In this document: piece after piece, positions 4,253 to 64,000 of the stretch | Numbering within the stretch: the first letter of the stretch is position 1 | Layout: every line of letters begins with the position of its first letter | Origin: an uncultured Candidatus Peribacteria bacterium | GTDB lineage: Bacteria > Patescibacteriota > Gracilibacteria > Peribacterales > Peribacteraceae | DNA length: 64,000 nucleotides | Assembly: GCA_964628805.1 (NCBI GenBank) | Contig: CAZVOK010000004.1 | Span: 20,163-84,162 of the forward strand | Direction of reading: 5' to 3' | Translations under genes and position numbers: made by a program | The notes under the pieces: model-generated | Database searches by the model: none | Seen by the model: only the letters and a program-made list of their open reading frames with translations | Told to the model about the DNA's origin: nothing

Positions 4253-4333
4253 AGAATCGAAAAATGGCTTTGGCTAGACGCAACTTCGCCTCTCATTTTT
4301 TGTCATAACCTCCTAGCCCTAACCCCAACCCTA

Positions 4334-4411
4334 CCTGTCGGCCGTAGCTTCAATGAAATGATGTTTTAAAGCAGAAAATGCATACCGAAGCGTTTACGGA
4401 GCGAAGGCTGA
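4334..4411. repeat. copy d of the bipartite motif (CCTG-stem-GTAGCT...GAGCGAA-stem), reverse orientation relative to copies at 49.3-50.0 kb
   Basis: CCTG TCGGCC GTAGCTT ...45 nt... GAGCGAA GGCTGA. The closing 6-bp stem is complementary with one G-T pair. Confidence 0.45.
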
Positions 4412-5692: not shown

Positions 5693-7453
5693 ATGATACG
5701 CACCCACACCTGCGGCGACCTTCGCCCGGAACACTCAGGCCAGACTGTCACCCTCTGCGGATGGGTACACCGCCGCCGCGACCACGGAGGACTCATGTTC
5801 ATAGATCTTCGCGATCACTACGGCCTCACACAGGTACTTTTTGATCCATCAGATAAAGATGTATTTGCAAAAGCAGAATCTCTGAGATCCGAATGGGTCA
5901 TTAAAATTGTGGGTGAAGTGCAAAAACGTCGTGAAGGTGCGGAGCGTGCCGAGAATCCTACGGGGATGATCGAAGTGGCAGTGAAAGAATTGGAAATTCT
6001 GAGTGAATCCAAGACTCCTCCGTTCGAGATCGATCAAGAGAAAGAAGTGAATGAAGACCTTCGTCTGCAGTACCGATTCTTAGACCTACGTCGTCCACGC
6101 TTGCAAGAAATGATGGTGAAGCGCGATCAGCTTATTACTCACGTACGACAGTACATGCACGGCCAGGGATTCACAGAGGTGCAAACACCGATCCTCGCAA
6201 ACTCGTCCCCAGAAGGAGCACGCGATTACCTGGTTCCAAGTCGCCTGCACCCAGGAATGTTCTACGCCCTTCCGCAGGCGCCTCAGCAGTTTAAGCAGCT
6301 TCTGATGGTGGCAGGACTGGACCGCTACTTTCAGATAGCCCCTTGTTTCCGTGATGAAGACCCACGCGCAGACCGTCATCCAGGAGAATTCTATCAGCTA
6401 GATATGGAAATGAGCTTTGTGACCAAAGACGATGTGTTCGGTGTTATCGAACCACTCATCGCAGAAGTGACGGAGAAATTCAGCGACAAGAAAGTGACGC
6501 ACAGGCCTTTCCCAAGAATTTCCTGGAAAGATGCCTGGAACCGCTTTGGATCCGATAAGCCGGACATGCGCTACGAGATGGAGTTGCAAGATGTGTCTGA
6601 GATTGTGAAGGGCTCCGGCTTCGCAGTCTTTACGGGAGCTATTGAAAATAAAGGAGTAGTAAAAGCACTCCCCGTACAAGGAGGAGCCGAGTTCAGCCGC
6701 AAGGACATTGATGAACTTACCGAGACCGCAAAGATCTACGGCCTTAAGGGCCTTGCGTACATTCTCGTAAAAGAAGGGGAATTGCAGTCCCCCATCGTAA
6801 AATTCTTAGGTGACGATGTGGCCAAGAAGATTGTGGAATCACTGGGGCTCAAAGCAGGCGACGCCGTATTCTTTGCTGCCGATGAATGGATGACCGCCTG
6901 CAAAGGACTTGGTCAGGTTCGCGTGGCTGCCGCAAAGAAGCTCGGGCTTGCCGACCCAAACAAGGCCGCCTGGGTGTGGGTCATCGACTTCCCGATGTAC
7001 GAGTGGAACGAAGACCTGAAGAAAATCGACTTTTCGCACAATCCATTCTCCATGCCACAGGGCGGAATGGACGCGCTCTTGAATCAAGAGCCTACAACGA
7101 TCCTCGCAGATCAGTACGACCTTGCGTGTAACGGCTTTGAGCTCATGAGCGGCGCTATCCGTAACCATAAGCCTGAGGTGATGTACAAAGCCTTCGAGAT
7201 CGCCGGCTACAGCAAAGAAGAAGTAGACGCCCGCTTCGGCGGCATGATCCGCGCATTCCAGTACGGAGCTCCTCCACACGGAGGCTGCGCCCCGGGGCTC
7301 GACCGCCTCATGATGATGCTCTGGGAATGCCCAAGCATCCGCGACATCTACGCCTTCCCCAAAAACGGCAAGGCACAGGATGTGATGATGAACGCACCTT
7401 CGCCGGTAATGGAGAAGCAATTGAAAGAACTGCATATTAAAGTCACCGATTAG
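5693..7453 (+). CDS. aspS: aspartate--tRNA ligase
   Basis: MIRTHTCGDLR...GWVHRRRDHGGLMFIDLRDHYG (OB fold), class II motifs FRDED...PGEFYQLD and GGCAPGLDR. The start is set at the internal ATG 5693, because the upstream ORF part overlaps the opposite-strand lipoprotein gene. Confidence 0.93.
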   Translation: MIRTHTCGDLRPEHSGQTVTLCGWVHRRRDHGGLMFIDLRDHYGLTQVLFDPSDKDVFAKAESLRSEWVIKIVGEVQKRREGAERAENPTGMIEVAVKELEILSESKTPPFEIDQEKEVNEDLRLQYRFLDLRRPRLQEMMVKRDQLITHVRQYMHGQGFTEVQTPILANSSPEGARDYLVPSRLHPGMFYALPQAPQQFKQLLMVAGLDRYFQIAPCFRDEDPRADRHPGEFYQLDMEMSFVTKDDVFGVIEPLIAEVTEKFSDKKVTHRPFPRISWKDAWNRFGSDKPDMRYEMELQDVSEIVKGSGFAVFTGAIENKGVVKALPVQGGAEFSRKDIDELTETAKIYGLKGLAYILVKEGELQSPIVKFLGDDVAKKIVESLGLKAGDAVFFAADEWMTACKGLGQVRVAAAKKLGLADPNKAAWVWVIDFPMYEWNEDLKKIDFSHNPFSMPQGGMDALLNQEPTTILADQYDLACNGFELMSGAIRNHKPEVMYKAFEIAGYSKEEVDARFGGMIRAFQYGAPPHGGCAPGLDRLMMMLWECPSIRDIYAFPKNGKAQDVMMNAPSPVMEKQLKELHIKVTD

Positions 7454-7550
7454 ACTTGAGACTAGAGATTTGAGACATGAGTAATGAACAAAAATTCGAA
7501 AACCAAGAGGCGCAGACACACTCAGGTCTCACGTCTCAAGTCTCATATCT
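7452..7550. repeat. heptad-word hairpin element (GAGACTT word)
   Basis: The left array AGACTTGAGACTAGAGATTTGAGACATGAG faces the right array CTCAGGTCTCACGTCTCAAGTCTCATATCT. Segments 7452-7462 and 7533-7543 are perfectly complementary. Confidence 0.7.
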
Positions 7551-13366: not shown

Positions 13367-13456
13367 CAAAGATCAAAGCAAAGCGGAATATTGAAAGTTT
13401 AAATTTTAACCTTTTTACTTTGCTTTGATTTTTGAATATTGATAGTTGATCTTTAC
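13367..13456. repeat. AT-rich heptad-word hairpin (CAAAG words)
   Basis: 13372-13383 ATCAAAGCAAAG is perfectly complementary to 13418-13429. The element abuts the mfd stop codon. Confidence 0.6.
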
Positions 13457-18400: not shown

Positions 18401-18527
18401 ATATCAAATATCAAACTTCAAAGTTACAAACATCAAAGAAATTCTAAAGATCAAAGATTAAATTTTAATCTTTCTCAATTATTTAACATTTCTTTGACAT
18501 TTAATGTTTGTAACTTTGATCTTTACC
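18401..18527. repeat. AT-rich heptad-word long hairpin (ATATCAA/CAAAG words)
   Basis: 18418-18433 TCAAAGTTACAAACAT is perfectly complementary to 18504-18519. The flanks are 7-nt periodic arrays. Confidence 0.65.
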
Positions 18528-25529: not shown

Positions 25530-26705
25530 ATGTCTGGCACGGAATCTTCCGAAGGCCTCATCACACTTCCGCGCCTGATCGATTGTCATGTGCACTTCCG
25601 CGAGCCGGGGCTCGAACATAAGGCGACGATGAAGAGTGAATCGGACTCCGCATTTTTTGGTGGAGTAGGAACTGTATGCGAAATGCCGAATACAAATCCG
25701 GCCACAGTGACCGTGGCAGCTTTGGCAGACAAAGTACGCAGAGCCAGCGAGATCGGGAATTGTGATATCAGATTTTTCTTTGGCATTACTCAGGCAGAAC
25801 ATCTTCATGCATTTAGGGATCTGATGACATCCGATTCCGAAGAAATGCAGCGACTGCGAAAGCGATGCTGCGGGGTGAAGTTGTACTTGGATCATTCCAC
25901 GGGAAATCAGAAAGTGGATGGTGGAATTGTGGAAGAGATATTTCAGGCGTGTGCGGAGCTGAATGTTGTATTGGTCGCTCACTGCGAAGATGCGGACATG
26001 AATGAAAAAATGTCGAAGGAGATTACGGGCTCTGATGTTGCGCTGCATTCAGAGAGACGACCTGCGGAGTCTGAGGCAAAGGCTATTGAATTTGCTTTAG
26101 GATTAGCTAAAAAGCACGGCACGCATCTGCACGTTGCGCACCTTTCTACCAAGCAGGGAATCGAGCTTGTACGTGAGGCAAAGAAAGATGGATTGAATGT
26201 GACGTGTGAAGTGACGCCGCATCATTTGTTTTTAACTGTTGAAGATTACGAGACTCTTGGAACTTTGGCGAAGATGAATCCGCCACTGCGAAGTAGTGAA
26301 CATCGTGATGCTCTGTGGGAGGGAATTGCGGATGGAACTGTGGATTGTGTGTCGACGGATCATGCGCCGCACACATTGGAAGAAAAACAATCAGGTGAGC
26401 CTTTGAATGCGCCAAGCGGTGTGCCGGGAGTGGAGACGATGGTGCCTCTGTTGTTGTCTGTCGCAAATAATCATTGGCCTAATCCCCAATCCCCAATCCC
26501 AAATCCCAAACTAACGTATTCTGATATTCAGCGACTGTGCTTCGAGAATCCGAATCGCATTTTCAATTTAGGAAAAAGTGGAGATGAGAAAATCACCATT
26601 GATCCGAATGTCGAATGGACCATCAAAGGCAGCGAATTGCATTCGAAATGCGGGTGGACGCCGTTTGAGGGGTGGACAGTCCGGGGGAAAATTTTGCAGA
26701 AATAA
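25530..26705 (+). CDS. pyrC: dihydroorotase (amidohydrolase family)
   Basis: DCHVHFREPG, VAHCED and STDHAPH motifs. The gene is immediately downstream of pyrB. Confidence 0.88.
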   Translation: MSGTESSEGLITLPRLIDCHVHFREPGLEHKATMKSESDSAFFGGVGTVCEMPNTNPATVTVAALADKVRRASEIGNCDIRFFFGITQAEHLHAFRDLMTSDSEEMQRLRKRCCGVKLYLDHSTGNQKVDGGIVEEIFQACAELNVVLVAHCEDADMNEKMSKEITGSDVALHSERRPAESEAKAIEFALGLAKKHGTHLHVAHLSTKQGIELVREAKKDGLNVTCEVTPHHLFLTVEDYETLGTLAKMNPPLRSSEHRDALWEGIADGTVDCVSTDHAPHTLEEKQSGEPLNAPSGVPGVETMVPLLLSVANNHWPNPQSPIPNPKLTYSDIQRLCFENPNRIFNLGKSGDEKITIDPNVEWTIKGSELHSKCGWTPFEGWTVRGKILQK

Positions 26706-29567: not shown

Positions 29568-31601
29568 ATGGACTCCACTGTCCACACAGGTTTCACAAAG
29601 GCCTCGCACGACGTGTCGCTCGTTTCCCAGAGTTTTCTGTCTGAGGAGAAAGAGCGTGCCTTTTTGCTGCTGCAGATTCACGCCGAACCGCGTGATGCGA
29701 AGGCGCTGGAGGAAGAATGCATTTCCATTGTGAAGCATGCGCTCCTGCAAACAGAAGGAGAAGCGTGGCACAGGCTCGATGGCACACTGAAAGAATTGAA
29801 CGGCCTCTTCAAAGGATTTTTGATTTCTCACGCGGTGCAGGATGTCCACGCCATCGTGTCTATCAGTGACAAAGAAGGAAATCTGCACGTGTCTCACGCG
29901 GGCAGGGGTGAGGCGTATCTCATCCGAAACGGTGGCTGCAGCCAAATTACCGAGTATGTACGCGGTAAGCCGTCACCCATGTTTGTGCACATCGCCAGCG
30001 GTTCTCTGGAGGCGGGTGATGTGCTCATCTTCTCCACACAAAGACTGCTTCGCACCCTCACGCCGGCACAACTCGCGCAGATGTCTCCACGCGAGTCGCA
30101 CCTGGTGCACGACATCATTGCGACTCTGGAAACAGAAAAAGAAATGGCGTCTGTAGGTACGTTGCACCTCTCTGCAAAGAGAGCTGCAGTAAGTAGGTTT
30201 GCAGAGGATGAAGACCTAGATGAAGCCCCGGTCCGCAGCAGATCTGCGTACCGCGAACTTCCATCGCGCAGGCGCACGCAGGGTGGTGGCAGTTGGTCCA
30301 TCCCATCCTTCGATACCGTCCGCGAATATGTGATGCCGGTAGTGGCAGGCGTGGGAAAGCTTAGTAAGCAGGGAGCGTCTCTCAGTAAAAAAGGAATGGG
30401 TTCCGCATCATCCGGCATGCAGTGGGTGCAGGTTGTGCAGGATCGCTTCACGCTGTTCCTGGCAGATTTGCGCCACCCGGAGCGCAAAAAGCGTGCACAT
30501 CTTCTGCTCCTGGCAGGGGCTTTGGCTGCATTCCTCATCATTTGGATGACCGTGAGGCTTGCCACCAGCACGCAGCGCAGCAAGAGCCGCGCAGAGCTAG
30601 GGGAACTCATGCAGCAGATTGAGGCCGATATCCGCACTGCGGAGAATCGTCGCCTCACGGGTGATAGCGAAGGGGCGAATGCTATTTTGGACAGAGCGGA
30701 ATTGCAGTCTAAAGAAATCATCAATAACGACAGCGGCCTCTTCCGCTCCGAAGCCCTGAATCTCTTGGATCGTGTACAGGCCAAGAAAGAGGAGATCAAT
30801 AACGTAGTGCGCATTTCTCCGCGCATGCTCGTGAACCTCAGCACCAAGGAGCCGGACATTGCCGCTCAAGGGATGATCGGCATTGCCGATGGAGAGTTCA
30901 CCGTGTTCGACAAAAAGAATTCGTACCACGTGGTGCTCAATAGCGTGGAAGAAGGCCGAGCGATCTCCGAAGAAGATCTCATCGCCGATGGTGCGAACTT
31001 CCCACGCTACGCCGCTCAGGCATTTTTGACTTCGGGTAATAGCCTTGTGGAAGTAAAGGAAGGCATTTTGGAATCCATGAAGACCGACGATGCCAATGGC
31101 TGGGTGACCGGGAAAGATTTGGAGACGTACCTAAGGAACCTGTACGTACTTAGCAGCGACAACAAAATCTACAAGTACGAGCGCCTGAATAATCGTTACA
31201 GTTCATCGGTACTGTACAACGTGAACGGGGACCTCAGCGGTGCCCTGGACATGGCGATCGACGGAAATGTGTACGTGCTGAAAGACAATGGAACCGTGGT
31301 GAAGCTCCTCCGCGGCGAAGCGCAGACATTCGGCATTCATCATGCACCAAGTAACCTTCTCACCGATGCGGCCAAGCTCTACAAGTTGCCCGATGGAAAC
31401 TTCTACTTCCTGGATCCCGTGAAGAACCGCGTGATTGTAACATCCGACGGCGGCTCCGCCGGAGATTCATCGTACGTGCGTCAGTATGTCATCGAGGGCG
31501 ATCAGATCGGTAAATTGCAGGATTTGTACGTGGATCCGGAGGAATCTCATATTTACGTGATGGATGAGAAGAAGGTGTATGTGGTGGATATCATTCGATA
31601 A
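29568..31601 (+). CDS. large membrane-spanning hypothetical protein (N-terminal PPM/SpoIIE-like region?, central TM, C-terminal repeat/propeller-like region)
   Basis: 677-aa ORF. The N-terminal part has weak PP2C-like character (VSHAGRGEAYLIRNG, GDVLIFSTQ). One TM lies near aa 310-330. Confidence 0.5.
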   Translation: MDSTVHTGFTKASHDVSLVSQSFLSEEKERAFLLLQIHAEPRDAKALEEECISIVKHALLQTEGEAWHRLDGTLKELNGLFKGFLISHAVQDVHAIVSISDKEGNLHVSHAGRGEAYLIRNGGCSQITEYVRGKPSPMFVHIASGSLEAGDVLIFSTQRLLRTLTPAQLAQMSPRESHLVHDIIATLETEKEMASVGTLHLSAKRAAVSRFAEDEDLDEAPVRSRSAYRELPSRRRTQGGGSWSIPSFDTVREYVMPVVAGVGKLSKQGASLSKKGMGSASSGMQWVQVVQDRFTLFLADLRHPERKKRAHLLLLAGALAAFLIIWMTVRLATSTQRSKSRAELGELMQQIEADIRTAENRRLTGDSEGANAILDRAELQSKEIINNDSGLFRSEALNLLDRVQAKKEEINNVVRISPRMLVNLSTKEPDIAAQGMIGIADGEFTVFDKKNSYHVVLNSVEEGRAISEEDLIADGANFPRYAAQAFLTSGNSLVEVKEGILESMKTDDANGWVTGKDLETYLRNLYVLSSDNKIYKYERLNNRYSSSVLYNVNGDLSGALDMAIDGNVYVLKDNGTVVKLLRGEAQTFGIHHAPSNLLTDAAKLYKLPDGNFYFLDPVKNRVIVTSDGGSAGDSSYVRQYVIEGDQIGKLQDLYVDPEESHIYVMDEKKVYVVDIIR

Positions 31602-31680
31602 ATATCAAAGAAAAGCTAAAAGATAAATTTTTTAAAGTTTAATTTTCTCTATTTAGCTTTTCTTTGAGCTTTGATATTTG
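31601..31680. repeat. AT-rich heptad-word hairpin
   Basis: 31601-31611 pairs with 31670-31680 (11 bp perfect), and 31612-31621 pairs with 31653-31662 (10 bp perfect). The element begins at the last base of the stop codon of ORF 29568..31601. Confidence 0.6.
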
Positions 31681-32130: not shown

Positions 32131-32273
32131 CAAACGCCAAATCTCAAAGAAAAGGTAAATGAGAAAGAATAAAACTTTAAAGTTTGATCTTTAAATTTTA
32201 GGCTTTCTTTGACATTTGAAGTTTTGAAATTTGTAATTTCAAGATAAGCATTTTTCTGCTATAATATCTCGAT

Positions 32274-32540: not shown

Positions 32541-32600
32541 TCTTTGGAATTGAAAATTGAGAATGGAGAATTGAAAATTAGTAATTGAAGATGGGGATTG
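32541..32600. repeat. single-arm heptad array
   Basis: GGAATTG AAAATTG AGAATGG AGAATTG AAAATTA GTAATTG AAGATGG GGATTGG shows strict 7-nt periodicity. No complementary arm is nearby. Confidence 0.6.
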
Positions 32601-34968: not shown

Positions 34969-35358
34969 ATGGCTGACACAGCACCTCCTACCGGTACCAA
35001 AAAGAAGATTCTCATCGTAGAAGATGAGCGTCCGTTGGCACATGCATTGGAATTGAAGATAGGTCATGAGGGGTACGAAACCAAAGTATGTCTGACAGGA
35101 GCCGAAGGACTCAAAGAAGCGCTCACGGGAAAGTATGATTTTATTCTTCTGGATCTCATCATGCCGGAGCTGGATGGATTTTCCTTCCTGCAGGAAATGG
35201 TAGGGAAGAAGATCAAAACGCCCGTCATCATCCTCAGTAACTTGGGACAGGAAGAGGACAAGGCGAAGGCAAAAACGTTCGGTGTCATCGACTACTTCGT
35301 GAAAGCGAATACGCCTATCTCCACCATCGTGACACGCGTGAAAGAGGCGCTGAAATAA
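34969..35358 (+). CDS. single-domain response regulator (CheY-like receiver)
   Basis: KILIVEDE...ILLDLIMPELDG...VKA receiver signature. The length is 129 aa and there is no output domain. Confidence 0.85.
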   Translation: MADTAPPTGTKKKILIVEDERPLAHALELKIGHEGYETKVCLTGAEGLKEALTGKYDFILLDLIMPELDGFSFLQEMVGKKIKTPVIILSNLGQEEDKAKAKTFGVIDYFVKANTPISTIVTRVKEALK

Positions 35359-35401
35359 ATTTCGTTTCACTCACACACACTTCCTTCCCGGCTCCATACA
35401 C

Positions 35402-37201: not shown

Positions 37202-37210
37202 AACCTTCTC

Positions 37211-39520
37211 ATGCCTACTTCTGAACCTTCCTCACAGGCTGAACACACAAGCTTCTTTGGTTTTTTTGCACGTTACTTCGGAGGTTCAAAGCAAGCGCCG
37301 ACAGTGCAGCCGAAGCCTGTGCGCATGCAGGTGGCAGCACCTACGAAAAAGATTGTTTTGAAGAATTTGACAGTCGACTTGGCTGCCACGGAAAAAAAGC
37401 TCTCTGCGTCTGTGAAAAGGCATAAGCATCGTACGCATCGTCATAAGAAGAAGGTTCCATCTTCACGTAGTGCAGCGCCAGTGCAGGATAAGGCGCTTGT
37501 TCACTATATGCAGCGCAAGTCTGCGTACCACACGTTTGCAAAGAAGAATCCAGGTGCTGCATCTGCACCTATTGCCCCTGTGAAAAACGAAACCAAGTCC
37601 CCAGGAATGTTCGGCAGTGCCCTGAACATGCTTCCATTTTTCTCGCAGAAGCTTGATGAGACCACGCAGAAAACAGCAGAGCTTTCTGAGAAGATAGTAG
37701 ACACCGAACGCAAGACACAGGAAATGGCGAAGCGTTTGCACGAGACGGAACTGGAACTGCAGAAGAGCTTGGCAAAGCTTGCACCGAAAGTAGCTCCTCA
37801 AGAAACATCTGCATCTGCTGCTGTGGACACTGACGAACAAGGTTTGGGAAAGCTTTTAAGCGTAGATGCTGCCGAGGATAAAGAAATACATCTGGATGAT
37901 TTCCTGGATACCCCAGACGGAACCACGGGGCGTTTTGTGAAACAGAAGAAAGATGAGCCTATGGAGCGAAGCTCTAAGGTGGTGAATATTACGGGTCTCA
38001 AGAAAAAGGAAGCACAGGAATTCATTTCGCTCATCAATGAGCTTCCCCAGGATAATCCCGGTTTCTTGGCATCGCTCGCCGCTGCTATCCGCGAAATTCG
38101 TGCCGACTGGAAAGATGGAAGTCCTGCGACTGCCTCTAAGCTACAGAAAGAAGTTCCGAAAGACATCAAGGAACTTGCAGCTTTGGTGGATATGAAACTG
38201 GAGGCAAAGAAGAAAGGAATGATTCTCTCCGGTGCACCGGAAGGCGACAGTGCAGCTAAGGTTCCTTCTGCAGAATCGGTAGCCGCACTCGGCTCACTGG
38301 TGTCCTCTATGAAGAAAGAGGAAAACAAGGGAACCATCACCGGTATTCCGGATATCAAAGAAGTGAAGAAACAAAACGAAAAAAAGAAGAAGGAAGAAAT
38401 CATCATGCCGACTGTGGTAAAGAAGAAACAATCCAATAGTGCGCTGGGCGAATTCATCGGATCCATCAAGTACTTCGGAATGGGCAAGGAACGTCAGGCG
38501 TTTGTGCAGAACCTTGCGACTATGTTGAATGCAGGACTTCCATTGATTGATGCCCTCCACACGCTTCAAATGGAAACGCGTGTGAAGCCTGCGAAAAAAC
38601 TGATTCAGCGTGTCATCGACGCCGTGGAAAACGGATCGGCTCTTTGGAGAGCTATGGAGGCGCAGCACTTCTTTTCCCCTCATGCCATCGCACTTATTCG
38701 CATCGGTGAAGAAGCCGGAAACCTGGCGGAAAACATGCAGTACTTGGCCGCGCAGCAGGAAAAAGATGCTGCCCTGAAAGGGAAAGTGCGAATGGCTATG
38801 ATCTACCCGGCTATTGTGATGACACTCATGTTCATCATCGTGATGGGACTGGGAATGTTCGTGCTGCCAAACCTCATTCAGGTGCTCTTCTCCTTGAACG
38901 TGGAACTGCCGCTCGCAACCCGTCTCGTGATCATGTTCACGAATGCGTTTACGGAATACGGAGCGGTATTTATTCCGAGCATGCTTGTGGGAGTGGTGAT
39001 CCTCACAATCCTTGGAAAGTTCACGCGCTTCAAAGTAGTCGTACAGTGGGTGATCTTCCGCATTCCGGGCATTGGAAAGCTTGCGCGCATGGCTACCTTG
39101 GCACGCTTCGGTGTGATCCTCGGAGGACTCTTGCAGGCTGGAGTTCCGCTAGTGGAAGCCATTCACTCTATGGCGGAAGTGACACCTACGGTGGCTTACA
39201 AGAACTTTTACATCAAACTTCTGGATCATATTTCCGTAGGAGATTCCTTTGGAAAGAGCTTTGCCGTGATCCGCGGGAGTGAAAAAATTCTGCCGATCCA
39301 AGTGCAGCAGCTCATCATCACGGGTGAGCGCACGGGAACACTCGCCAAGATCATGTTGAAGATTGCCGATATCTACGAAAAAGAAGCGAACAGTACCGCA
39401 GAAAAACTCCCGGTGATCTTGGAACCAATGTTGCTCCTCTTCATCGGAGGACTCGTGGGAACGATTGCCTTTGCCATCATTGTGCCGATCTACAGTATTG
39501 TGGGAAATGTGGGTGGATGA
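37211..39520 (+). CDS. pilC: type IV pilus platform protein (GspF/PilC family) with an N-terminal charged extension of about 370 aa
   Basis: The C-terminal ~400 aa contain two T2SSF-type repeats with TM segments (LATMLNAGLPL..., LGGLLQAGVPL...). The N-terminal part is K/E/S-rich. Confidence 0.85.
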   Translation: MPTSEPSSQAEHTSFFGFFARYFGGSKQAPTVQPKPVRMQVAAPTKKIVLKNLTVDLAATEKKLSASVKRHKHRTHRHKKKVPSSRSAAPVQDKALVHYMQRKSAYHTFAKKNPGAASAPIAPVKNETKSPGMFGSALNMLPFFSQKLDETTQKTAELSEKIVDTERKTQEMAKRLHETELELQKSLAKLAPKVAPQETSASAAVDTDEQGLGKLLSVDAAEDKEIHLDDFLDTPDGTTGRFVKQKKDEPMERSSKVVNITGLKKKEAQEFISLINELPQDNPGFLASLAAAIREIRADWKDGSPATASKLQKEVPKDIKELAALVDMKLEAKKKGMILSGAPEGDSAAKVPSAESVAALGSLVSSMKKEENKGTITGIPDIKEVKKQNEKKKKEEIIMPTVVKKKQSNSALGEFIGSIKYFGMGKERQAFVQNLATMLNAGLPLIDALHTLQMETRVKPAKKLIQRVIDAVENGSALWRAMEAQHFFSPHAIALIRIGEEAGNLAENMQYLAAQQEKDAALKGKVRMAMIYPAIVMTLMFIIVMGLGMFVLPNLIQVLFSLNVELPLATRLVIMFTNAFTEYGAVFIPSMLVGVVILTILGKFTRFKVVVQWVIFRIPGIGKLARMATLARFGVILGGLLQAGVPLVEAIHSMAEVTPTVAYKNFYIKLLDHISVGDSFGKSFAVIRGSEKILPIQVQQLIITGERTGTLAKIMLKIADIYEKEANSTAEKLPVILEPMLLLFIGGLVGTIAFAIIVPIYSIVGNVGG

Positions 39521-39523
39521 TGT

Positions 39524-39629
39524 GGAATACTAGAGTACTGGAATACTGGAATAATGGGGGAAGTAGGAATTGTGATTAGGATTTTTGTGTTGTTTCCTAG
39601 TATTCTAGTACTCCAGTATTCCAGTACTC
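39524..39629. repeat. heptad/octad-word hairpin element (GGAATACT/GAGTACT words)
   Basis: 39533-39550 GAGTACTGGAATACTGGA is perfectly complementary to 39612-39629. The element starts 4 nt after the pilC stop. Confidence 0.75.
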
Positions 39630-39638
39630 TTTAATTAG

Positions 39639-40094
39639 ATGACAAAAAATCGCCCCGCATTTGCCCTATTAGAGCTCCTCATGATCATCGCGATCATTGG
39701 GATTATTTCCACTATCTCGGTGCCGCTGTATCGCAGCTACCAGTTACGGAGTCACCTGGAGACCGCAAAGAACCAGGTGGTACAGGGTTTACAGCGTGCC
39801 AAGCAGAATGCGCAGTCCGGGAAAAATGATGCCGTGTGGTCTTTTTATCCTTCCGCCGGTGTTCTATTCCAGGGTTCCAGCTACGCTACACATGATCCTG
39901 CAAAAGCAGAAATATATCCTATGCCTACGACCATTGAGATGACCGGGCTCACACAAGTGACGTATGACAAGAGAGGCTTTCCGGATGTGACAGGCGATAT
40001 TATTCTTCAGCAAATTGGTACTCCTCCCAATGCTGCGAGTGTGAAAATTGTTGTCGACAGGCAGAAAATCTCCGTGTTTCAAGTGAACCCGTAA
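39639..40094 (+). CDS. prepilin-like minor pilin (GspH/FimT-like) with Ala at the -1 position
   Basis: MTKNRPA|FALLELLMIIAIIGII has F+1 and E+5 of a class III signal, but A instead of G precedes the predicted cleavage site. Confidence 0.7.
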   Translation: MTKNRPAFALLELLMIIAIIGIISTISVPLYRSYQLRSHLETAKNQVVQGLQRAKQNAQSGKNDAVWSFYPSAGVLFQGSSYATHDPAKAEIYPMPTTIEMTGLTQVTYDKRGFPDVTGDIILQQIGTPPNAASVKIVVDRQKISVFQVNP

Positions 40095-40225
40095 CCATTC
40101 GGTGAATTATTTGTGAAGTCTTCCGCGTATCGTTCAAGAGCAATCGTCAAGTGATTTGTAGTGCACAGAGTCTTCCTCCAGGCGCTTTTTGCTACACTGA
40201 AGGACGCATTCCTTCCTTTTTCTTT

Positions 40226-41530
40226 ATGAAAAAACGTCCCGCATTCGCCTTGCTCGAGATGATCATGGTCATCGGCATCATCGGCATTGTGTCTACCATG
40301 TCTGTTCCTCTGTATCACAGCTACCAGATACGAAACGATCTGGCGCTGGCGAAGAACCAGATCACACAGGGTCTGCAGCGCGCGAAGCTCAATGCGCAGG
40401 CAGGGAAAAACGATGATGTGTGGTCCTTCTACACTCCTGCGGGCGTGCTGTTCCAGGGTGCAGACTACGCAAATCATGATGCAGCACAGGCAGAAACATA
40501 CCCTATGCCTTCTACCATTAAGATCTTCGGGTTGAACCAAGTGACGTACGACAGAAATGGTTCGCCGGACGTCACGGGAGATATTATTTTGAAAGCAGTG
40601 AACGGCGATGAAGATTCCATCAGCGTAAAGATCGCCATCGATGAAGATACGATCGCAACAGTTGTAGGAGATAGTCTCACTATCTGTCACCGTGACACAG
40701 TCACAGGAACAACATCTACCATTTCCATCACTGATGCCCAGTGGCCGCATCACCAAGGTCATGGCGATACATTGAACGCCTGCCCTGCTGCGTCTAGCAG
40801 TGTTGCAAGTTCTTCTGCTGTATCAAGTTCCGTGGTGTCGAGCGTTGTATCTTCTTCTAGCAGCGTGGCAGTTTCTTCCTCCAGCGTATCATCGGTCGCG
40901 TCGTCTTCCAGTGCAGGCGGAGCAGGAAGTTCTTCGTCCAGTTCTGTCACACAGCTCTGCAATTCAAAGTTCACCTTTGCTGATGGCTTCCTGACTACCA
41001 AAGCAGCCGTCTCCATCACCTTCAAGAACATGCTGTCCAAAATTACCTTTGGTCAAGGTGGTCCACAGATAGATGTGAACGCGTGCTACAACCCTGCGGG
41101 AGATTCCGTATATCGAAACCTCTACTCCAATAACGGCCAGTGCAAAACCAATGGATCCAATCATGGTGTTGCCGTGAAGCCCAATGGAACCGATACAAAG
41201 GTGGCATCGTTTGCTGCCAATAAGCAGGTGAAGCTGAAGATCCACGGCATGTACAAACAGCAGGGCTGGCTGGCCTTCGATGAGTCTTTTGAATCCAATG
41301 ACGGCAGCGGTCACATCCGTTTCATGCGCGATGGAGATAACCCTCTCACTTACATTGGCTTTGGAAATCAAGTGAGCCTCAAGAGTTGGCTCCAGAGCAA
41401 GAGCATGCTGGATGCTCAAGGCAAAGTGAACATTGGAGCCTGCGAGGTACTAGCGGTGGCAGAGCTGGGAGATCTCCATTCCTCTGCTGCGGATTTCCAG
41501 GACAATGTGATGCTGATTACGGTGCAGTAA
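40226..41530 (+). CDS. prepilin-like protein, paralog of 39639..40094, with poly-Ser linker and extra C-terminal domain
   Basis: MKKRPA|FALLEMIMVIGIIGIV. The first ~150 aa are alignable with the preceding gene. A Ser/Val-rich tract and a ~200-aa domain follow. Confidence 0.7.
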   Translation: MKKRPAFALLEMIMVIGIIGIVSTMSVPLYHSYQIRNDLALAKNQITQGLQRAKLNAQAGKNDDVWSFYTPAGVLFQGADYANHDAAQAETYPMPSTIKIFGLNQVTYDRNGSPDVTGDIILKAVNGDEDSISVKIAIDEDTIATVVGDSLTICHRDTVTGTTSTISITDAQWPHHQGHGDTLNACPAASSSVASSSAVSSSVVSSVVSSSSSVAVSSSSVSSVASSSSAGGAGSSSSSSVTQLCNSKFTFADGFLTTKAAVSITFKNMLSKITFGQGGPQIDVNACYNPAGDSVYRNLYSNNGQCKTNGSNHGVAVKPNGTDTKVASFAANKQVKLKIHGMYKQQGWLAFDESFESNDGSGHIRFMRDGDNPLTYIGFGNQVSLKSWLQSKSMLDAQGKVNIGACEVLAVAELGDLHSSAADFQDNVMLITVQ

Positions 41531-41549
41531 ATGTAAAAGATTTCCAAAT

Positions 41550-41575
41550 AGCGCGGGGCAACCCGCGCTTTTTAT
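41550..41575 (+). terminator. intrinsic terminator
   Basis: AGCGCGGG-GCAA-CCCGCGCT followed by TTTTAT. Confidence 0.8.
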
Positions 41576-41644
41576 ATTGCATTGCTTCTGCGAGCGAATA
41601 ATTTCCTCCTTATAGATCACAGGTGTTACACTGCACTCCTGCCT

Positions 41645-45365: not shown

Positions 45366-46001
45366 ATGCCATCTTCTTTCTCTCATCGGCCAGGTGTCAC
45401 ATTTGTAGAGCTACTGATGTTCATGGCAGTGATCGCCATTGTGGCCGGGGTAGTACTGCCACTGCTTTTTGCAGCTACAGAAAATCGTCTTCTGCAGGAA
45501 TCCATTTCTGTCGTAGAACACACAGGCACGCAGATACTGGAAAATTTTGATAAACACATTCGTCCCGCACAGCAGATTTTGGATCCCACTCCCGGCGGAC
45601 AAGGAACGGTGGTGGCAGTGCAGACGGGTTCCGATGACACCTCTCCTACTATTTTCGGACTCGCCAGCGGATCGATTATTGTGATTCGCGGTACTACGCG
45701 TACTGTCATCAGCTCTCCCCAGGTGGCAGTATCCAACTTCCGTGTGCGCAATACGTCTACTTCAGCGAACAGCCAAAGCCTGCAAATTTCTTTCACGCTC
45801 TCGCGCACTATCCGCCTGGAAGCGCCGCACATGTACTCGCAGGATTTTAAAACTCTCATTCCTTTGTACAGAAATGATGCGCCCACATCGGCGGAGTGCA
45901 CCTGTACCGTCCCCGGATGTATTGATAGTGAACATTACGCGTGGCAGGTATGCGTGAGTGGCGTGTGCCAGAATGCGACGGATGCGATGATGTGTCTTTG
46001 A
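45366..46001 (+). CDS. prepilin-like protein (paralog of the N-terminal domain of 44196..45350) with a Cys-rich tail
   Basis: HRPG|VTFVELLMFMAVIAIV. The shared segments ENRxxQESIS and ISFTLSRT match the preceding gene. Confidence 0.7.
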   Translation: MPSSFSHRPGVTFVELLMFMAVIAIVAGVVLPLLFAATENRLLQESISVVEHTGTQILENFDKHIRPAQQILDPTPGGQGTVVAVQTGSDDTSPTIFGLASGSIIVIRGTTRTVISSPQVAVSNFRVRNTSTSANSQSLQISFTLSRTIRLEAPHMYSQDFKTLIPLYRNDAPTSAECTCTVPGCIDSEHYAWQVCVSGVCQNATDAMMCL

Positions 46002-46099
46002 GAATTGAGAATTGAGAATTGAGTTTAGTTTGGTTCACATTTTCTGATTATTTTCAATTGTGGGGTACTCAGATCTCATATCTCACGTCTCAAGTCTCC
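46000..46099. repeat. heptad-word element (GAGAATT x3 ... TCTCACGTCTCAAGTCTC)
   Basis: GAGAATTGAGAATTGAGAATTGAG lies at 46000-46023. The 18-mer at 46081-46098 is identical to 7527-7544. Confidence 0.7.
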
Positions 46100-46199
46100 C
46101 GTTCGTCAAGAGAAACGGGGCTTCCACTCTGCAAATCCTTGTTATACTGCATTCCGCTTTCGTGGACGTGTTCCACTTCCCTTCTTTCCTCATTTCTTT

Positions 46200-49006: not shown

Positions 49007-49027
49007 GGTTTTCGCAGTTAAGAAGAA

Positions 49028-49124
49028 AGTTCCAAGTTCCAAGTGCGAAGTTCCAAGTATAGTGCTTCTTTTTTTAAAGAAGAATTCCTTCGTTGGAACT
49101 TAGAACTTAGAACTTCGAACTTAA
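49028..49124. repeat. heptad-word hairpin element (AAGTTCC words)
   Basis: The left array 49028-49060 and right array 49091-49124 are complementary at about 26 of 31 positions. Confidence 0.7.
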
Positions 49125-49147: not shown

Positions 49148-49150
49148 AGT

Positions 49151-51657: not shown

Positions 51658-51752
51658 GGGTAAGGTAGGTACAGTACGTAAGGTATGTACGGTAGGGAAA
51701 ATCAAAATTTTCATCCCTACCTTACCTACTGTACCCACCTTACGTACCTTAC
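51658..51752. repeat. word hairpin element (GTAAGGTA/GTACGGTA words) in a divergent intergenic region
   Basis: Arrays of permuted words sit on both arms. GGTAGGGA at 51690-51697 pairs with TCCCTACC at 51713-51720, and the arm ends are complementary. Confidence 0.6.
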
Positions 51753-51804
51753 TTTTCCGCAAACGGATAATGTCTAAAGCACCACTCTGTAGTACAATCT
51801 CCTC

Positions 51805-53205
51805 ATGAAGAAGTCCGAAGTCCTCTTTGGGATTGCGCGTGTGCCTTTGGACGGCCTGGCTGTAGGCGTGGCATTACTGCTTGCCTACAGGCTTCGTGAA
51901 GCAGGGGTCGATTTGCTCCCGGGAGTTCAGCTCCTGGAAACAGCCACTACCCTGCCGCCGCTTCCGTACTACTTGGCAACCATGATTTTGCCGGGGATCG
52001 CACTGTTTTTGGTGCTTGCTGCTTGTGTGAAGCTCTATGCCCTGCGTGCCACGCTCAGTTTGTGGATTGAGGTGGGGCGTATCGTCATCGTGACAGGGCT
52101 GTGGCTTGTGTGTGTGATTGCGTGGTATTTCTTGGTACTGAAAGAACTCTTCTTCTCCCGCGCGCTTCTGCTACATGCGCTGTTCTTCATGTTCTTTTTC
52201 AGCACGATGCTGCGGGTGTCACTGCGATTACTACAGAGGTCTCTCCTTCGTGCGGGAATCGGTCGCATGCTGGTGGTGTCCGTGGGTGTGCAGAAGCTTG
52301 TGGATCATGCGCGGAATATTGTGGAACACGACAGTCACTACGCGTACTTGGGACATCTAAAAAGTTTGAATGAGTTACGTGCGGTGGTTCAGAAAGAACA
52401 GAGGGTAGTGGACTTAGTAGTGCATACGGATCCCAATCCTCAAAGCGCCGATACGTTTGCGCTCATTGATTACTGCCGCAGTCATCACTTGGGCTACGCA
52501 TTCCTGCCTCCCGTGCTGGCCGATGTGCCGCATCAGTTAGCCGTGGAAAGGCTGGGGCTCCTTCCGCTGATCCGCTTTCAGCCGACTCCCTTGGATGGCT
52601 GGGGAAGAGTAGTGAAGCGACTATTCGATGTAGTCTGCAGTGCGATTCTGTTGGTGGTGCTATCTCCTCTTCTACTTCTGTGTGCCATCGGTGTGCTTTT
52701 GGATAGCGGATGGCCCGTACTGTATTTTTCTAATCGTGTGGGACAGGAAGGAAGAAAAACAGTGCGGCTCTGGAAGTTTCGTTCCATGATCAAGAATGCC
52801 GATGAAGAGAAGGTGAAATTGCAGAAACTGAATCATCGGAAAGACGGTCCGCTCTTTAAAGTAAAGAATGATCCGCGTGTGACACGCTTCGGACACGTTC
52901 TTCGTCGCTTCAGCTTGGATGAATTGCCACAGCTGTGGAACGTGCTCACAGGTCGATTGTCGCTAGTGGGGCCTCGTCCTCATTTACTGGAAGAAGTGGA
53001 ACTGTACTCTCCGGAGCAACGCAGAGTATTTGCCGTGAAGCCCGGAGCTACCGGGCTCGCACAGGTATCTGGGCGATCGGACCTGAGCTTTCAGGAAGAG
53101 GTGGCTCTGGATTTGCAATACATCGAGGAGTGGTCGATCTTCTTGGACTTATGGATTTTGTGGAGGACGCTGTTTGTGGTGATGGGGAGGAAGGGGGCGG
53201 ATTAG
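51805..53205 (+). CDS. polyprenyl-phosphate sugar phosphotransferase (WbaP/Bac_transf family initiating transferase)
   Basis: Four to five N-terminal TM segments are present. The C-terminal domain carries [15 protein letters not shown]...[11 protein letters not shown]...LVGPRP. Confidence 0.88.
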
Positions 53206-53338
53206 GGTTGGGGCTAGGGATTAGGGTTGGGAATTTAAGTGTTTTGAAAGGGCAGAATTTTGTTTTAAGAGAGTTGTAAATGTGGCATAATGTTGATGTC
53301 TCTGCTTAGCGCGGAGATACACCTTCTGGAGGAAAGCC

Positions 53339-55942: not shown

Positions 55943-55980
55943 GGAATACTAGAGTACTGGAGTACTGGAATACTAGGAAT
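55943..55980. repeat. single-arm copy of the GGAATACT/GAGTACT word array
   Basis: GGAATACTAGAGTACTGGA is identical to 39524-39542. Confidence 0.7.
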
Positions 55981-57435: not shown

Positions 57436-57607
57436 GATGATGAGGGGTTAGGGATTGGGGATTCGGGATTGGGATTTTTCTCCTTAGCCCGAAGCGACCA
57501 TCTCGCAGTGTAGCGACATAGTCAGATTCAAATAAATCAAATTGTAGGGTTATTATATACTTTTCTTTGCTAAGTGCAATGGCTTCGGCAAGAATAAGGC
57601 ACACTTT

Positions 57608-61381: not shown

Positions 61382-61494
61382 GAGGTAAGGAAGATGCGGA
61401 AAGTACGGAAGGCAAGGGATTTGTAGAGGATACGTTGGCTAAAAATGACGAAATTCCCTACCGTACCTTCCTTACCCGCCTTACATTCCTTACC
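61382..61494. repeat. word hairpin element (GGTAAGGAA/GTACGGAAGG words)
   Basis: 61382-61391 AGGTAAGGAA is perfectly complementary to 61485-61494. Internal words are partly complementary. Confidence 0.6.
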
Positions 61495-61550
61495 TTGTCC
61501 TGCTATTATTAGCACCTAGCATTCCTGAGTGACAACTCCCGCAACTCCCC

Positions 61551-64000
61551 ATGGCAATCCTCGATACTCTCAATAAGCTCCTCGGCGATCCCAATAAAAA
61601 AGAACTCAAGAAGCTCTGGCCTGTGGTGAAGGAGGTTCGTAAGGCTGCCGAGGCTCCGCACATTCGTGCTCTTACGCTGGAGACACTTCCGCGTCAGACA
61701 GAAGAATTGAAAGTGAAAGTGCAGTCCGGCCAGAAGACGCTCGATGAGATTTTGCCGGAAGCCTTTGCTACCGCCATCCGCGCGTGTGAGCTTCTGCAAG
61801 GAAAGACGATGAAGATTGGAAATCAGGAATTTACGTGGAACATGGTGCCGTTTGATGTGCAGATCCTCGGCGGCATCGCGCTGCACAGAGGGAACATCGC
61901 GGAAATGAAAACGGGAGAAGGAAAGACACTGGTGTGTACGCTGCCTGCGTACCTCAATGCTTTAATGGGCAAAGGTGTACACGTAGTGACTGTGAACGAT
62001 TACCTCGCCAAGCGCGATGCGCAGTGGATGGGGCTTCTGTACAAAGCACTCGGACTTACGGTTGGAACCATCGTGCATGAGTTGGAGCCGGATCAGCGTA
62101 AGCAGGAGTACGCAGCAGACATCACCTACGGAACCAACAGCGAATTTGGATTCGATTACCTGCGCGATAACATGGCAACGTCGCTCGAGCGCCAGGTGCA
62201 GCGCGGGCTCTATTACGCCATCGTGGATGAAGTGGATAGCATTCTCGTAGATGAAGCGCGCACGCCGCTCATCATCAGTCAGCCTGCGAATGAATCGACG
62301 GATAAATACGTGCAGTACGCAGGACTTGTCTCGAACTTGCAGGAAAATGTGCACTTTAACTTAGATGAAAAGCAGCGTGCAGCCACTCTCACCGATGAAG
62401 GTATTAAAAAGATGGAGCAGCTACTGGGTGTGGAGAACATCTACACAGAGAAGGGATTTGAAACCGTGCATCACTTGGAGCAGGCGCTGAAGGCGCACGG
62501 AATCTTCAAGAAAGACGTGGATTACGTGGTGAAGGACGGCGAGATCATCATCGTGGATGAATTCACAGGCCGCCTCATGCCGGGACGCAGGTACAGTCAT
62601 GGATTGCACCAGGCGATTGAGGCTAAAGAAGGAGTCACTGTGCAGCGCGAGAGCCGCACGCTTGCCACTATCACCTTCCAGAACTACTTCCGCCTGTTTA
62701 AGAAACTTGCGGGTATGACGGGAACGGCGAAAACAGAGGAAGAAGAATTTGAATCGATTTATAAACTGCGCGTGATTGTAATCCCCACACACAGAAATGT
62801 GCAGCGCCAGGACAAGGCCGATGCCATCTACCGCACGATGAGTGCGAAGTTCAAGGCGGTTGCAAAAATTGCGAAAGAAAAACATGCTGTGGGACAGCCG
62901 GTGCTCATCGGTACTACGAGCATTGAAAAGTCTGAAGTGATGAGCCTCTTGCTCGATCAAGAAGGTGTGCCGCATCAGGTGCTGAACGCCAAGCAGCACG
63001 AGAAAGAAGCCGAAATTGTGGCGAATGCAGGCCAAAAAGGCACTGTGACGATTGCCACCAACATGGCGGGCCGTGGAACGGACATTAAGCTGGGAGAAGG
63101 CGTCACGGAGCTCGGCGGTCTTGCCATCCTCGGTACCGAGCGCCACGAAGCACGACGCATCGATAATCAGCTTCGCGGTCGCGCGGGACGCCAGGGAGAC
63201 CCGGGAGAGAGTCAGTTCTTTGTGTCCATGGAAGATGAACTGATGCGTCTTTTCGGGGGTGATCGTTTGAAATCCATGATGGAAAGATTAAATGTTCCGG
63301 ATGATGTGCCGCTGGAAAATGGCATCGTGTCACGAAGCATTGAAAGTGCGCAGAAGAAAGTAGAAGGAAGAAACTTCGACATCCGCCGCCACGTGCTGCA
63401 GTACGACAACGTGATGAACCAACACCGTGAGATTATCTATAAGAGGAGAAATAAGATTTTGGAGAAGATTGCGGAGGCGAGGGAGACTCGAGACGTGAGA
63501 CTTGAGACTAGAGAAAATGAGAATGAGACACTCGAATCTCAAGTCTCACGTCTCGAGTCTTTGCCATTGCATGAAGAAATCCTCAAAGCTCTCCGCTCGG
63601 AGGTTGCCGCTCTCGTTTCTTTGTACACGCAGGATACGGATCCGGACCTGTGGAACTTCAATGAAATTGCCGAGAACCTCATGGTGTATCACATGGATCT
63701 TTCGAAGGTTATTTCTCGTGATCACTTGGCTACTCTCACAGAGCGCGAGGAACTGCAGAAGCACTTGGAGGACATGATGGTGAAGTTCTACGAGGATAAG
63801 TGTGCGCAGCATGACATCGATACCGTGGCTCGTGCCGAGAGCATCGTGACGCTCAGAAGTATTGATTCCCACTGGATGGATCATATCGACGATATGTCTC
63901 ACCTGCGTGAACAGGTGGCCTTCTCCGGCTACGCCCAGCGCGATCCTCTCATTGAATATCAGGATCAAGGTTTCCAGCGGTTCCAGCAGCTGATCGCCAC
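61551..64000 (+). CDS. secA: preprotein translocase ATPase SecA (3' end beyond the window)
   Basis: From ATG 61551 the frame is open to the window end. Motifs: MKTGEGKTLV, VTVNDYLAKRD, VDEVDSILVDEARTPLIIS, TNMAGRGTDI, RGRAGRQGDPG. The gene is missing from the ORF track because no stop codon falls in the window. Confidence 0.93.
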   Translation, partial: MAILDTLNKLLGDPNKKELKKLWPVVKEVRKAAEAPHIRALTLETLPRQTEELKVKVQSGQKTLDEILPEAFATAIRACELLQGKTMKIGNQEFTWNMVPFDVQILGGIALHRGNIAEMKTGEGKTLVCTLPAYLNALMGKGVHVVTVNDYLAKRDAQWMGLLYKALGLTVGTIVHELEPDQRKQEYAADITYGTNSEFGFDYLRDNMATSLERQVQRGLYYAIVDEVDSILVDEARTPLIISQPANESTDKYVQYAGLVSNLQENVHFNLDEKQRAATLTDEGIKKMEQLLGVENIYTEKGFETVHHLEQALKAHGIFKKDVDYVVKDGEIIIVDEFTGRLMPGRRYSHGLHQAIEAKEGVTVQRESRTLATITFQNYFRLFKKLAGMTGTAKTEEEEFESIYKLRVIVIPTHRNVQRQDKADAIYRTMSAKFKAVAKIAKEKHAVGQPVLIGTTSIEKSEVMSLLLDQEGVPHQVLNAKQHEKEAEIVANAGQKGTVTIATNMAGRGTDIKLGEGVTELGGLAILGTERHEARRIDNQLRGRAGRQGDPGESQFFVSMEDELMRLFGGDRLKSMMERLNVPDDVPLENGIVSRSIESAQKKVEGRNFDIRRHVLQYDNVMNQHREIIYKRRNKILEKIAEARETRDVRLETRENENETLESQVSRLESLPLHEEILKALRSEVAALVSLYTQDTDPDLWNFNEIAENLMVYHMDLSKVISRDHLATLTEREELQKHLEDMMVKFYEDKCAQHDIDTVARAESIVTLRSIDSHWMDHIDDMSHLREQVAFSGYAQRDPLIEYQDQGFQRFQQLIA
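63484..63560. repeat. perfect 24-bp inverted repeat (GAGAC words) inside the secA reading frame
   Basis: 63484-63507 AGACTCGAGACGTGAGACTTGAGA is the exact reverse complement of 63537-63560. The spacer is 29 nt. Confidence 0.85.

Follow-up and report, generated by a model that had tools for sequence, protein, structure and literature searches.

Dispersed foldback hairpins built from short words in the intergenic DNA of a Candidatus Peribacteria bacterium

This article deals with a set of intergenic hairpins in a stretch of 64,000 nucleotides (nt) of DNA from an uncultured Candidatus Peribacteria bacterium (contig CAZVOK010000004.1, positions 20,163 to 84,162; hereafter the window), in which arrays of short, degenerate tandem words face complementary arrays. 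On our best reading, the closest described objects are the hairpins of the STRRs (short, tandemly repeated, repetitive stretches of DNA) of cyanobacteria, along with repetitive extragenic palindromic (REP) sequences and miniature inverted-repeat transposable elements (MITEs). Taking the evidence together, we interpret the hairpins of the window, with moderate confidence, as dispersed foldback repeat families with a fast turnover that probably act as hairpins at RNA 3' ends. In the literature that we searched, hairpins of this kind are described neither for Peribacteria nor for the Candidate Phyla Radiation (CPR), and the Peribacteria genome paper of 2016 does not mention intergenic hairpins.

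Cyanobacterial STRR hairpins consist of 7-bp repeats located between genes (e.g., between hupS and hupL and upstream of hoxW), and roles in transcript stability, termination, and translational coupling have been proposed for them, with their origin and function still unexplained as of 2009 (PMC2670836). The hairpins described here share with them the ~7-nt tandem repeats, the many intergenic sites, the frequent position near the 3' end of the preceding gene, and the ability to fold. The dispersal of a unit over many loci, which characterizes STRRs, is also seen, as six families are spread over one to five loci each within 64 kb. Vioque reportedly found in 1997 that STRRs build both arms of helix P12 in the RNase P RNA of heterocystous cyanobacteria. 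The published STRR units are CCCCAGT, TTGGTCA, and CAACAGT (STRR1-3), none of which ever occurs in tandem in the window. Further differences are the CPR host, the lack of HIP1 sites, periods of 6-9 nt, the presence of six families per 64 kb, the pairing of ~80% of the array arms, and a fixed G-first polarity. Given the absent units, the lack of HIP1 sites, and the Peribacteria host, the likeness is one of kind and not of homology. A cyanobacterial origin of the DNA was rejected as well, since HIP1 sites are missing and the homologues come from Peribacteria.

REP sequences and the hairpins formed by their doublets (REPINs) are similar in other respects: they are ~100-nt intergenic hairpins occurring at high density and mostly downstream of genes, with several families per genome, variable spacers, a long doublet hairpin, one predominant orientation, and a REP-associated tyrosine transposase (RAYT)-type gene in the genome. 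A REP unit, on the other hand, is an imperfect palindrome of 20-40 bp (stem of 5-13 bp), whereas the arms discussed here are non-palindromic tandem arrays. No element end has a GTAG/CTAC tag, and a CGTC/GACG match is confined to a single end of two elements out of 11, so that no tag is conserved. Moreover, the RAYT gene of a REPtron is flanked by the dispersed repeats, whereas the terminal inverted repeats (TIRs) of the RAYT unit in the window are unrelated to the word families. Membership of the REP/REPIN class, as defined, is ruled out by these three features, i.e., the non-palindromic arms, the missing GTAG tag, and the unrelated RAYT flanks.

With MITEs and foldback elements, the hairpins have in common inverted arms, copy-variable loops, insertion polymorphism between close relatives, and, for the AT-rich family, full-length homology; in eukaryotic foldback elements the terminal inverted repeats are, likewise, made of tandem subrepeats. 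They differ in showing no target-site duplication at 11 elements and no transposase with matching ends in the window, and they are far smaller than foldback transposons. Finally, they resemble intrinsic terminators as stable hairpins right after stop codons, at the same sites where relatives have canonical terminators. They depart from them by 25-40-bp stems with periodic internal loops, a mostly absent U-tract, and a G-rich 5' arm; thus, the position at gene 3' ends is that of a terminator, whereas the combination of a GC-rich stem and a U-tract is lacking.

Hairpins built from tandem words and their dispersal

The window contains 12 full intergenic hairpins of 68-124 nt (~1 per 5 kb), each arm of which comprises three to five degenerate words of 6-9 nt, along with at least six unpaired arrays of the same words (Table 1). 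These 12 hairpins and 6 arrays add up to 1,362 nt. Within a word, a conserved core of ~5 nt is combined with one to three variable bases. The original prediction had placed such structures in nearly every intergenic gap, which proved too generous: a full hairpin is present in 12 of the 42 gaps of at least 40 nt, and roughly five more gaps hold an unpaired array (~17 in total).

At all loci listed in that prediction, tandem arrays facing complementary arrays were recovered by repeat finding, inverted-repeat scanning, and folding alike. Tandem Repeats Finder returned matched pairs of arrays at every one of them, with 1.9-4.7 copies per arm and periods of 7-9, apart from a single row with period 16 and another with period 18. 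The predicted enrichment over shuffled sequence is also there. An inverted-repeat scan (20-nt arms, complementarity of at least 17/20, 30 dinucleotide shuffles as the control) yielded 11 loci, 10 of them intergenic, against a shuffle mean of 0.23, and a stricter detector, for which the inverted arms must also be periodic, gave 8 loci in the window versus none in 5 shuffles.

Whole elements fold at -21 to -49 kcal/mol, and most lone arms stay near 0 (range 0 to -7.2). The RNA-fold z-scores of the 12 hairpins range from -2.2 to -11.3; for 11 of them, none of 200 shuffles reaches an equal stability, while the weakest (F4) is equaled by 7 of 200. Whether as RNA or as DNA, the single strand of each element is predicted to form a stem of 25-40 bp, made of 5-7-bp helices that are broken at the variable positions, with several registers possible. 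The complementarity between the arms amounts to 0.65-0.85 at shifts that are multiples of the word period and to 0.17-0.38 off-period. These peaks at whole-word shifts indicate that the stems are genuinely word-built and that alternative pairing registers are possible.

The exemplar (B1) fills the whole gap of 118 nt between the stop codon of a pilC-like gene (T2SSF domain; 39518-39520) and the next ATG at 39639, its array starting 2-4 nt past the stop, directly after pilC as had been claimed. The announced 18-bp perfect pairing is exact, 39533-39550 being the reverse complement of 39612-39629 at 18/18 positions. Both sequences said to recur do so: the 19-mer GGAATACTAGAGTACTGGA at 39524 and 55943, and the 18-mer TCTCACGTCTCAAGTCTC at 7527 and 46081.

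A different word at each locus, as originally proposed, is not what we find, since the words group into six recurring families, namely GAGACNN (A, three loci), GGAATACT (B, two), GGGATT (C, five), GTAAGGTA (D, two), AAGTTCC (E, one), and ATCAAAG (F, four). Copies of family A have the arms and the innermost GAGT...ACTC pair in common, and their loops cannot be aligned. In family B, an identical run of variant words (26 nt) links position 55943 to a locus of a relative that is not its orthologue. D1 (51660) and D2 (61383) have right arms that are ~85% identical over 45 nt, and the four AT-rich elements of family F align over their full length, the loop center included. Such a common order of variant words, or full-length homology, exceeds the mere reuse of a 5-nt core, so copies at different loci share descent. 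Judging from these alignments, the hairpins are dispersed repeat families, a known kind of object, and not independent inventions of each locus. Of the earlier formula of a shared architecture with locus-specific sequence, the first half stands, as the architecture is common and recurs with different words in other Peribacteria; the second half gives way to the six dispersed families. In line with the prediction, no single REP or MITE consensus explains all copies, nor does an Rfam family. The covariance-model search of the hairpins gave nothing at the gathering score, and its sub-threshold matches to microRNA precursors (mir-16 at 30 vs 36.5 bits and mir-992 at 26.4 vs 79 bits) are due to chance.

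All arrays are intergenic except for the one in frame inside the dihydroorotase-like gene, which is translated as WPNPQSPIPNPK in the window and, in a close relative (L038 3360-3389), as WPNHQSLIPNPQ; coding sequence can therefore carry word arrays.

The aspS and pilC hairpins were reproduced with 100% identity by independent Logan assemblies of two sequencing runs. Logan contigs tend to start or stop within word arrays, which is what multi-copy repeats would give. An assembly artefact, the possibility that had been flagged for checking, is ruled out by these identical hairpins together with an orthologous hairpin from a different sample.

Table 1. Word hairpins and unpaired word arrays in the window
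Feature	Position	Strand	Words	Size or structure	Genomic context	Fold
A1	7449..7550		GAGACNN		begins on aspS stop codon	z = -5.7
A2	45997..46100		GAGAATT facing TCTCANN		first word contains stop codon of gene 45354-46001	z = -2.9
A3	63482..63562		GAGACNN	main register 28/33 complementary	overlaps stop of gene 63546-63968 (-)	z = -11.3
B1 (exemplar)	39522..39631		GGAATACT/AGAGTACT	arms ~35 nt, loop 38 nt	pilC-like gene (see text)	-43.3 kcal/mol, z = -6.1
C1	19872..19963		GGGATT/GGGTTA	loop 26 nt	loop contains stop of gene 19933-20727 (-)	z = -3.7
D1	51658..51754		GTAAGGTA-type	period 9 with 18-nt super-repeat	between divergent starts of nfi (-) and sugar transferase (+)	z = -5.7
D2	61382..61496		GGTAAGGAA-type		between convergent stops 61377 (+) and 61509 (-)	z = -4.1
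E1	49027..49122		AAGTTCC		20 nt past histidine-kinase stop, opposite 3' end of convergent RNase P RNA	z = -5.3
F1	13367..13441		AT-rich ATCAAAG/CAAAG family		11 nt past mfd stop	z = -5.2
F2	18401..18524		ATCAAAG family		on glmU-like stop, edge of oriC region	z = -5.4
F3	31600..31679		ATCAAAG family		fills gap past stop of gene 29568-31601	z = -4.1
F4	32141..32222		ATCAAAG family		past stop of gene 31678-32130	z = -2.2
Unpaired array B2	55943..55980	+	GGAATACT		~200-nt inverted-repeat element where right arm expected	
Unpaired array	57446..57476	+	GGGATT		upstream of nusA start, divergent gap	
Unpaired array	53198..53232	+	GGGTT/GGGATT		includes sugar-transferase stop codon	
Unpaired array	4314..4335	+	CCCTAA/CCCCAA (complement of family C)		relative orthologue L005 7376-7403	
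Array, in frame	26477..26511	+	AATCCCC (family C)		inside dihydroorotase-like gene 25530-26705	
Unpaired array, weak	32548..32590	+	AATTGAA/AATTGAG		divergent gap	

Two further features of individual members may be mentioned. F3 and F4 (31600-32222) bracket a small cytidylyltransferase-like gene (31678-32130), and the starts of their left arms are identical at 18 of 21 positions. The G-rich GGGATT/GGGTTA arms and arrays (19872-19905, 53198-53232, and 57446-57476) have at least four G3 tracts with 3-4-nt spacers, a spacing that resembles the G-quadruplex motif and telomere-like repeats.

Gene ends, polarity, and turnover among relatives

Across eight genomes, ~20 of 23 hairpins start on a stop codon or no more than ~50 nt past one, and several stop codons even fall within the first word or the loop. 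In gaps that exceed the hairpin in length, it is the stop side that the hairpin occupies. The gaps behind aspS, pilC, and gene 29568-31601 are filled, with the 3' arm lying 7-14 nt from the next start codon or overlapping it, which makes translational coupling possible there. In 19 of 22 hairpins the 5' arm holds more G than C (p ~0.001), and this G-first polarity applies on either strand.

A close relative is represented by a Joint Genome Institute (JGI) metagenome contig (L005 and L038) that is syntenic with positions 1-30 kb of the window (93% identity in AspRS and 88% in the GlmU-like protein). For AspRS, for the GlmU-like protein, and for a conserved protein of 677 aa, all homologues come from Candidatus Peribacteria, Peribacteraceae, or Peregrinibacteria, groups of the CPR/Patescibacteria. 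At the aspS site, the GAGACNN hairpin is kept in the relative (L005 11655-11760); the two copies differ by one indel of a whole word and by substitutions, most of which fall on variable bases. After mfd, the place of the CAAAG-word hairpin is taken in the relative by a GC-rich terminator of the canonical type, both genomes having the same flanks, the same outer CAAAG...CTTTG stem, and the same TTTAAAT center. At the glmU-like site, a segment of 146 nt that includes F2 is missing from the relative, within an oriC region that is otherwise 85-90% identical; its empty site already has CAAAG-like words. The orthologue of C1 (L038 9677-9949) is the same hairpin, the loop of which carries a ~200-nt inverted-repeat insertion. 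The hairpins are thus gained, lost, or swapped for canonical terminators between genomes with ~90% identical proteins.

Looking further afield, relatives whose AspRS is 77-78% identical are free of these hairpins over 21 kb each, and their aspS gaps measure only 19-58 nt. The same architecture with unrelated words was picked up by the periodic-arm detector in the Peribacteria loci L011, L012, L015, L020, L027 (Ga0156703_11), and L029, whereas it scored zero in the non-Peribacteria loci and in every shuffle. In the gap between the histidine-kinase gene and the RNase P RNA gene, six lineages have word arrays that differ from one another, and other lineages have plain GC hairpins of the canonical kind. 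No close relative was returned by a PilC search of genome contigs, and a metagenome scan with the histidine kinase gave relatives at no more than 50% identity.

As an observation in its own right, the convergent arrangement of this kinase with the RNase P RNA (49146-49627, minus; region 46751-49627) appears conserved in many Peribacteria-like contigs (L011-L029), as judged from the 3'-end sequence of RNase P that these contigs have in common downstream of the kinase gene. Hairpins that change in sequence have a hot spot in the short spacer separating the two.

The adjacency to stop codons and the exchange with canonical terminators support the view of an RNA 3'-end hairpin. The original prediction had held that the elements are not simply terminators. 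This is right insofar as most lack a U-tract, and canonical terminators are indeed present at the sites it had named (41550, 46680, 49123, and 50061), but it is too strong, as ~20 of 23 hairpins abut a stop and relatives have terminators at two of the same sites.

Weighing the explanations

If the hairpins are fast-changing foldback families that act at RNA 3' ends, their arrays would grow and shrink via slipped-strand mispairing of whole words and would be copied between arms and loci through transposition or template switching. Once transcribed, a hairpin at the 3' end of a gene would serve as a pause or termination site and would hold back 3' exonucleases. Within operons, where the gap is very short, it may also occlude the start region of the following gene for as long as the 5' arm has not been melted by the upstream ribosome.

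Several observations count against this interpretation. As had been noticed, one hairpin (51658-51754) sits between divergent starts, and so does the array at 57446-57476. Most of the 12 hairpins, again as stated earlier, have no T-run past the stem, F1 and B1 having no more than T-rich tails. The G-first polarity looks like the reverse of that in several canonical terminators of the window and the relative, the stems of which are C-first, such as AAAACCCCTCC...GGAGGGGTTTT and AAACCGTCCCGC...GCGGGACGGTTT, as judged by eye and not by a tally. Sense and antisense folds have 25 and 17 G.U pairs, respectively, at similar energies, thus revealing no strand asymmetry. No compensatory substitutions were found in the one good orthologous pair (aspS). 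As to the copying mechanism, neither target-site duplications nor terminal tags were found at the 11 elements examined; the F2 indel does have a direct repeat of 10 nt, but not one that frames the hairpin. The repeats may be largely selfish or neutral, and tolerated at 3' ends.

Two additional ideas were dropped. The G.U counts (25 vs 17) are unconvincing as a sign of selection on the sense RNA, and a stop-codon fence, in which words of period 7 or 8 would provide stops in all three frames and which was also weighed as an explanation of the polarity, is contradicted by a stop density in the 5' arms of 2.2 versus 2.3 in composition-matched sequence.

A more far-reaching proposal, to which we give only a tentative place, is that Peribacteria, and possibly other CPR bacteria and some phages, carry a distinct class of self-propagating, slippery foldback elements that replace canonical intrinsic terminators. 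Their arms would be kept free of self-complementarity (G and little C in the 5' arm, the reverse in the 3' arm), and they would spread between gene 3' ends by hairpin-dependent copying, perhaps through a Y1 transposase or template switching. In these reduced genomes they would then do the work of terminators, even though their G/C polarity seems reversed and a U-tract is missing.

It is unlikely, in our estimate, that the hairpins are REPIN-like non-autonomous transposons, moved in trans by the RAYT-type Y1 transposase encoded at 24008-24511, with arms that form an unusual version of the hairpin it recognizes. The gene itself is present on the minus strand (NCBIfam NF047646, REP_Tyr_transpos, at 88.7 bits vs a cut-off of 80, with HUH and Y motifs) and is conserved in the hairpin-carrying relative, where the unit is kept at the same locus (L038 5385-5890) with a protein that is 76% identical in two tblastn segments, possibly owing to a frameshift. 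The size of the elements (68-124 nt), their hairpin form, their intergenic 3' location, the multiple families, and the variable spacers would all suit REPINs; a single inverted arrangement is strongly predominant, as in the head-to-head dimers of REP sequences, and the insertion polymorphism among close relatives at the mfd and glmU sites fits as well. The flanks of the gene tell against it. The RAYT unit (23738-24499) lies between 36-nt inverted repeats, ACTTCCACTCTGGGAGCGGGTGTCCCACCCGCGGTT, which hold a 17-nt palindrome, GCGGGTGTCCCACCCGC, unrelated to the word families; this palindrome, the only part of the TIRs that was searched for, occurs in the window at the two RAYT flanks only. Such a unit is TIRtron-like and no REPtron, and it contains ~250 extra nt in the window, with an open reading frame (ORF) of 50 codons (23822-23973). 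Besides, lone arms are not palindromic, a conserved GTAG/CGTC tag is missing, and the same transposase would need to act on six families that are unrelated to each other.

Alternatively, and quite improbably in our view, ordinary terminator stems could have expanded in place by replication slippage at each locus, without copying between loci and without added function. Several of the comparisons discussed above agree with this: the mfd word hairpin and the terminator of the relative have their flanks, CAAAG...CTTTG stem, and TTTAAAT center in common, the empty glmU site of the relative already has CAAAG-like words, a whole word was gained or lost between the aspS orthologues, and the words at the histidine-kinase/RNase P site differ by lineage. 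Expansion in place, however, does not account for the same 5-nt cores at two to five unrelated loci within 64 kb, nor for copies that have a common variant order over 26-45 nt or align in full length. The polarity, too, is apparently opposite to that of several canonical terminators.

Viral sequences bear on the same question. Whatever their core, short tandem arrays with words of 7-8 nt turn up frequently in public viral contigs, but only 1-8% of them have an inverted partner within 200 nt, versus ~80% of the array arms in the window. Pairing is thus not an automatic outcome of slippage, which is a further argument against expansion in place. Among the viral records of paired arrays, 16 of 17 are G-first, both arms of some hairpins being counted separately. 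High-GC IMG/VR contigs, namely L064 (4325-4400 and 11400-11480) and L098 (397-504), have (GGAGACA)4 facing (TGTCTCC)4, likewise G-first, so the architecture is not restricted to Peribacteria. There is nothing special about the GAGAC core, as viral contigs contain the control CAGAGNN x4 no less often than GAGACNN x4, and four viral matches to the 18-mer of family B trace to one phage coding sequence and are due to chance. The phenomenon is a lineage-enriched form of a known repeat type and not a new category.

We regard it as very improbable that the cores are sites for a multimeric RNA- or single-stranded DNA-binding protein, comparable to the triplet arrays of TRAP or HutP, with the hairpin as a regulatory switch. 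The conserved cores of ~5 nt with free spacers that are seen here, and the orthologue substitutions that mostly fall in the spacers, would suit such sites. One genome, on the other hand, has six unrelated cores, and related genomes have further ones; the cores of the two arms are merely complementary to each other, and no candidate protein is found among the genes of the window.

Hardly credible, lastly, is a reading as recombination sites like the attC of integrons, or as an assembly artefact: imperfect hairpins are found in attC sites, too (57-141 nt, behind the ends of genes, conserved in structure and variable in sequence), and short-read contigs do break at the arrays, but no RYYYAAC/GTTRRRY-like ends were seen by eye in the hairpin termini (no pattern search was made), the ORFs of the window hold no integrase domain, the housekeeping flanks are in conserved synteny, independent assemblies are identical, and the orthologous hairpin stems from a different sample.

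Neighboring elements and implications

Apart from the RAYT unit, the window contains a second candidate mobile element. This ~200-nt element (55992-56193 in the window, 9713-9919 in L038) has 20-nt TIRs, TGTCACGCTGAGGTGCGTCC and GGACGCACCTCAGGATGACA, and an internal hairpin at 56059-56126, and its copies in the two relatives, which lie at loci that are not orthologous, are 72% identical; Rfam gave no match to it. In L038 it lies in the loop of a word hairpin, and in the window it lies beside an unpaired word array, which suggests a MITE that targets word hairpins.

The region at 17974-18400 is likely a replication origin. It is located between the glmU-like gene and dnaN and combines an AT-rich palindrome (17989-18026) with several DnaA boxes of the sequence TTATCCACA; its conservation in the relative is high, and the cumulative GC skew reaches its minimum there, near 18-20 kb. 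Another pair of DnaA-box-like repeats is found at 34848-34881.

A cluster of the type IV pilus/type II secretion type (32614-46655) encodes a prepilin peptidase, a T2SSE ATPase, and at least one pilin-like protein with an N-methyl motif; its T2SSF protein (769 aa) has an N-terminal extension of ~420 aa. A gene with a TfoX_N domain is found at 2332-2745 (minus). Pilus-type genes and a TfoX-like gene being present, pairs of DNA-uptake sequences were considered for the hairpins as well, and rejected, as six unrelated word families do not match one uptake signal.

For the biology of the group, the first implication concerns genome economy. CPR genomes are small and streamlined (~1.25 Mb for the published Ca. 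Peribacter riflensis), yet the hairpin repeats take up ~2% of the bases of the window and ~17% of its intergenic DNA. If the hairpins terminate or stabilize transcripts, predictors that rely on a U-tract and a short GC stem probably miss many transcript ends in this lineage. In practical terms, the repeats break short-read assemblies, which matters for the reconstruction of genomes from metagenomes, and their fast gain and loss between genomes with ~90% identical proteins makes them usable as strain markers. Finally, the G-first polarity, which also occurs in unrelated viral heptamer hairpins, could point to the mechanism by which such repeats are generated, including the STRRs of cyanobacteria.

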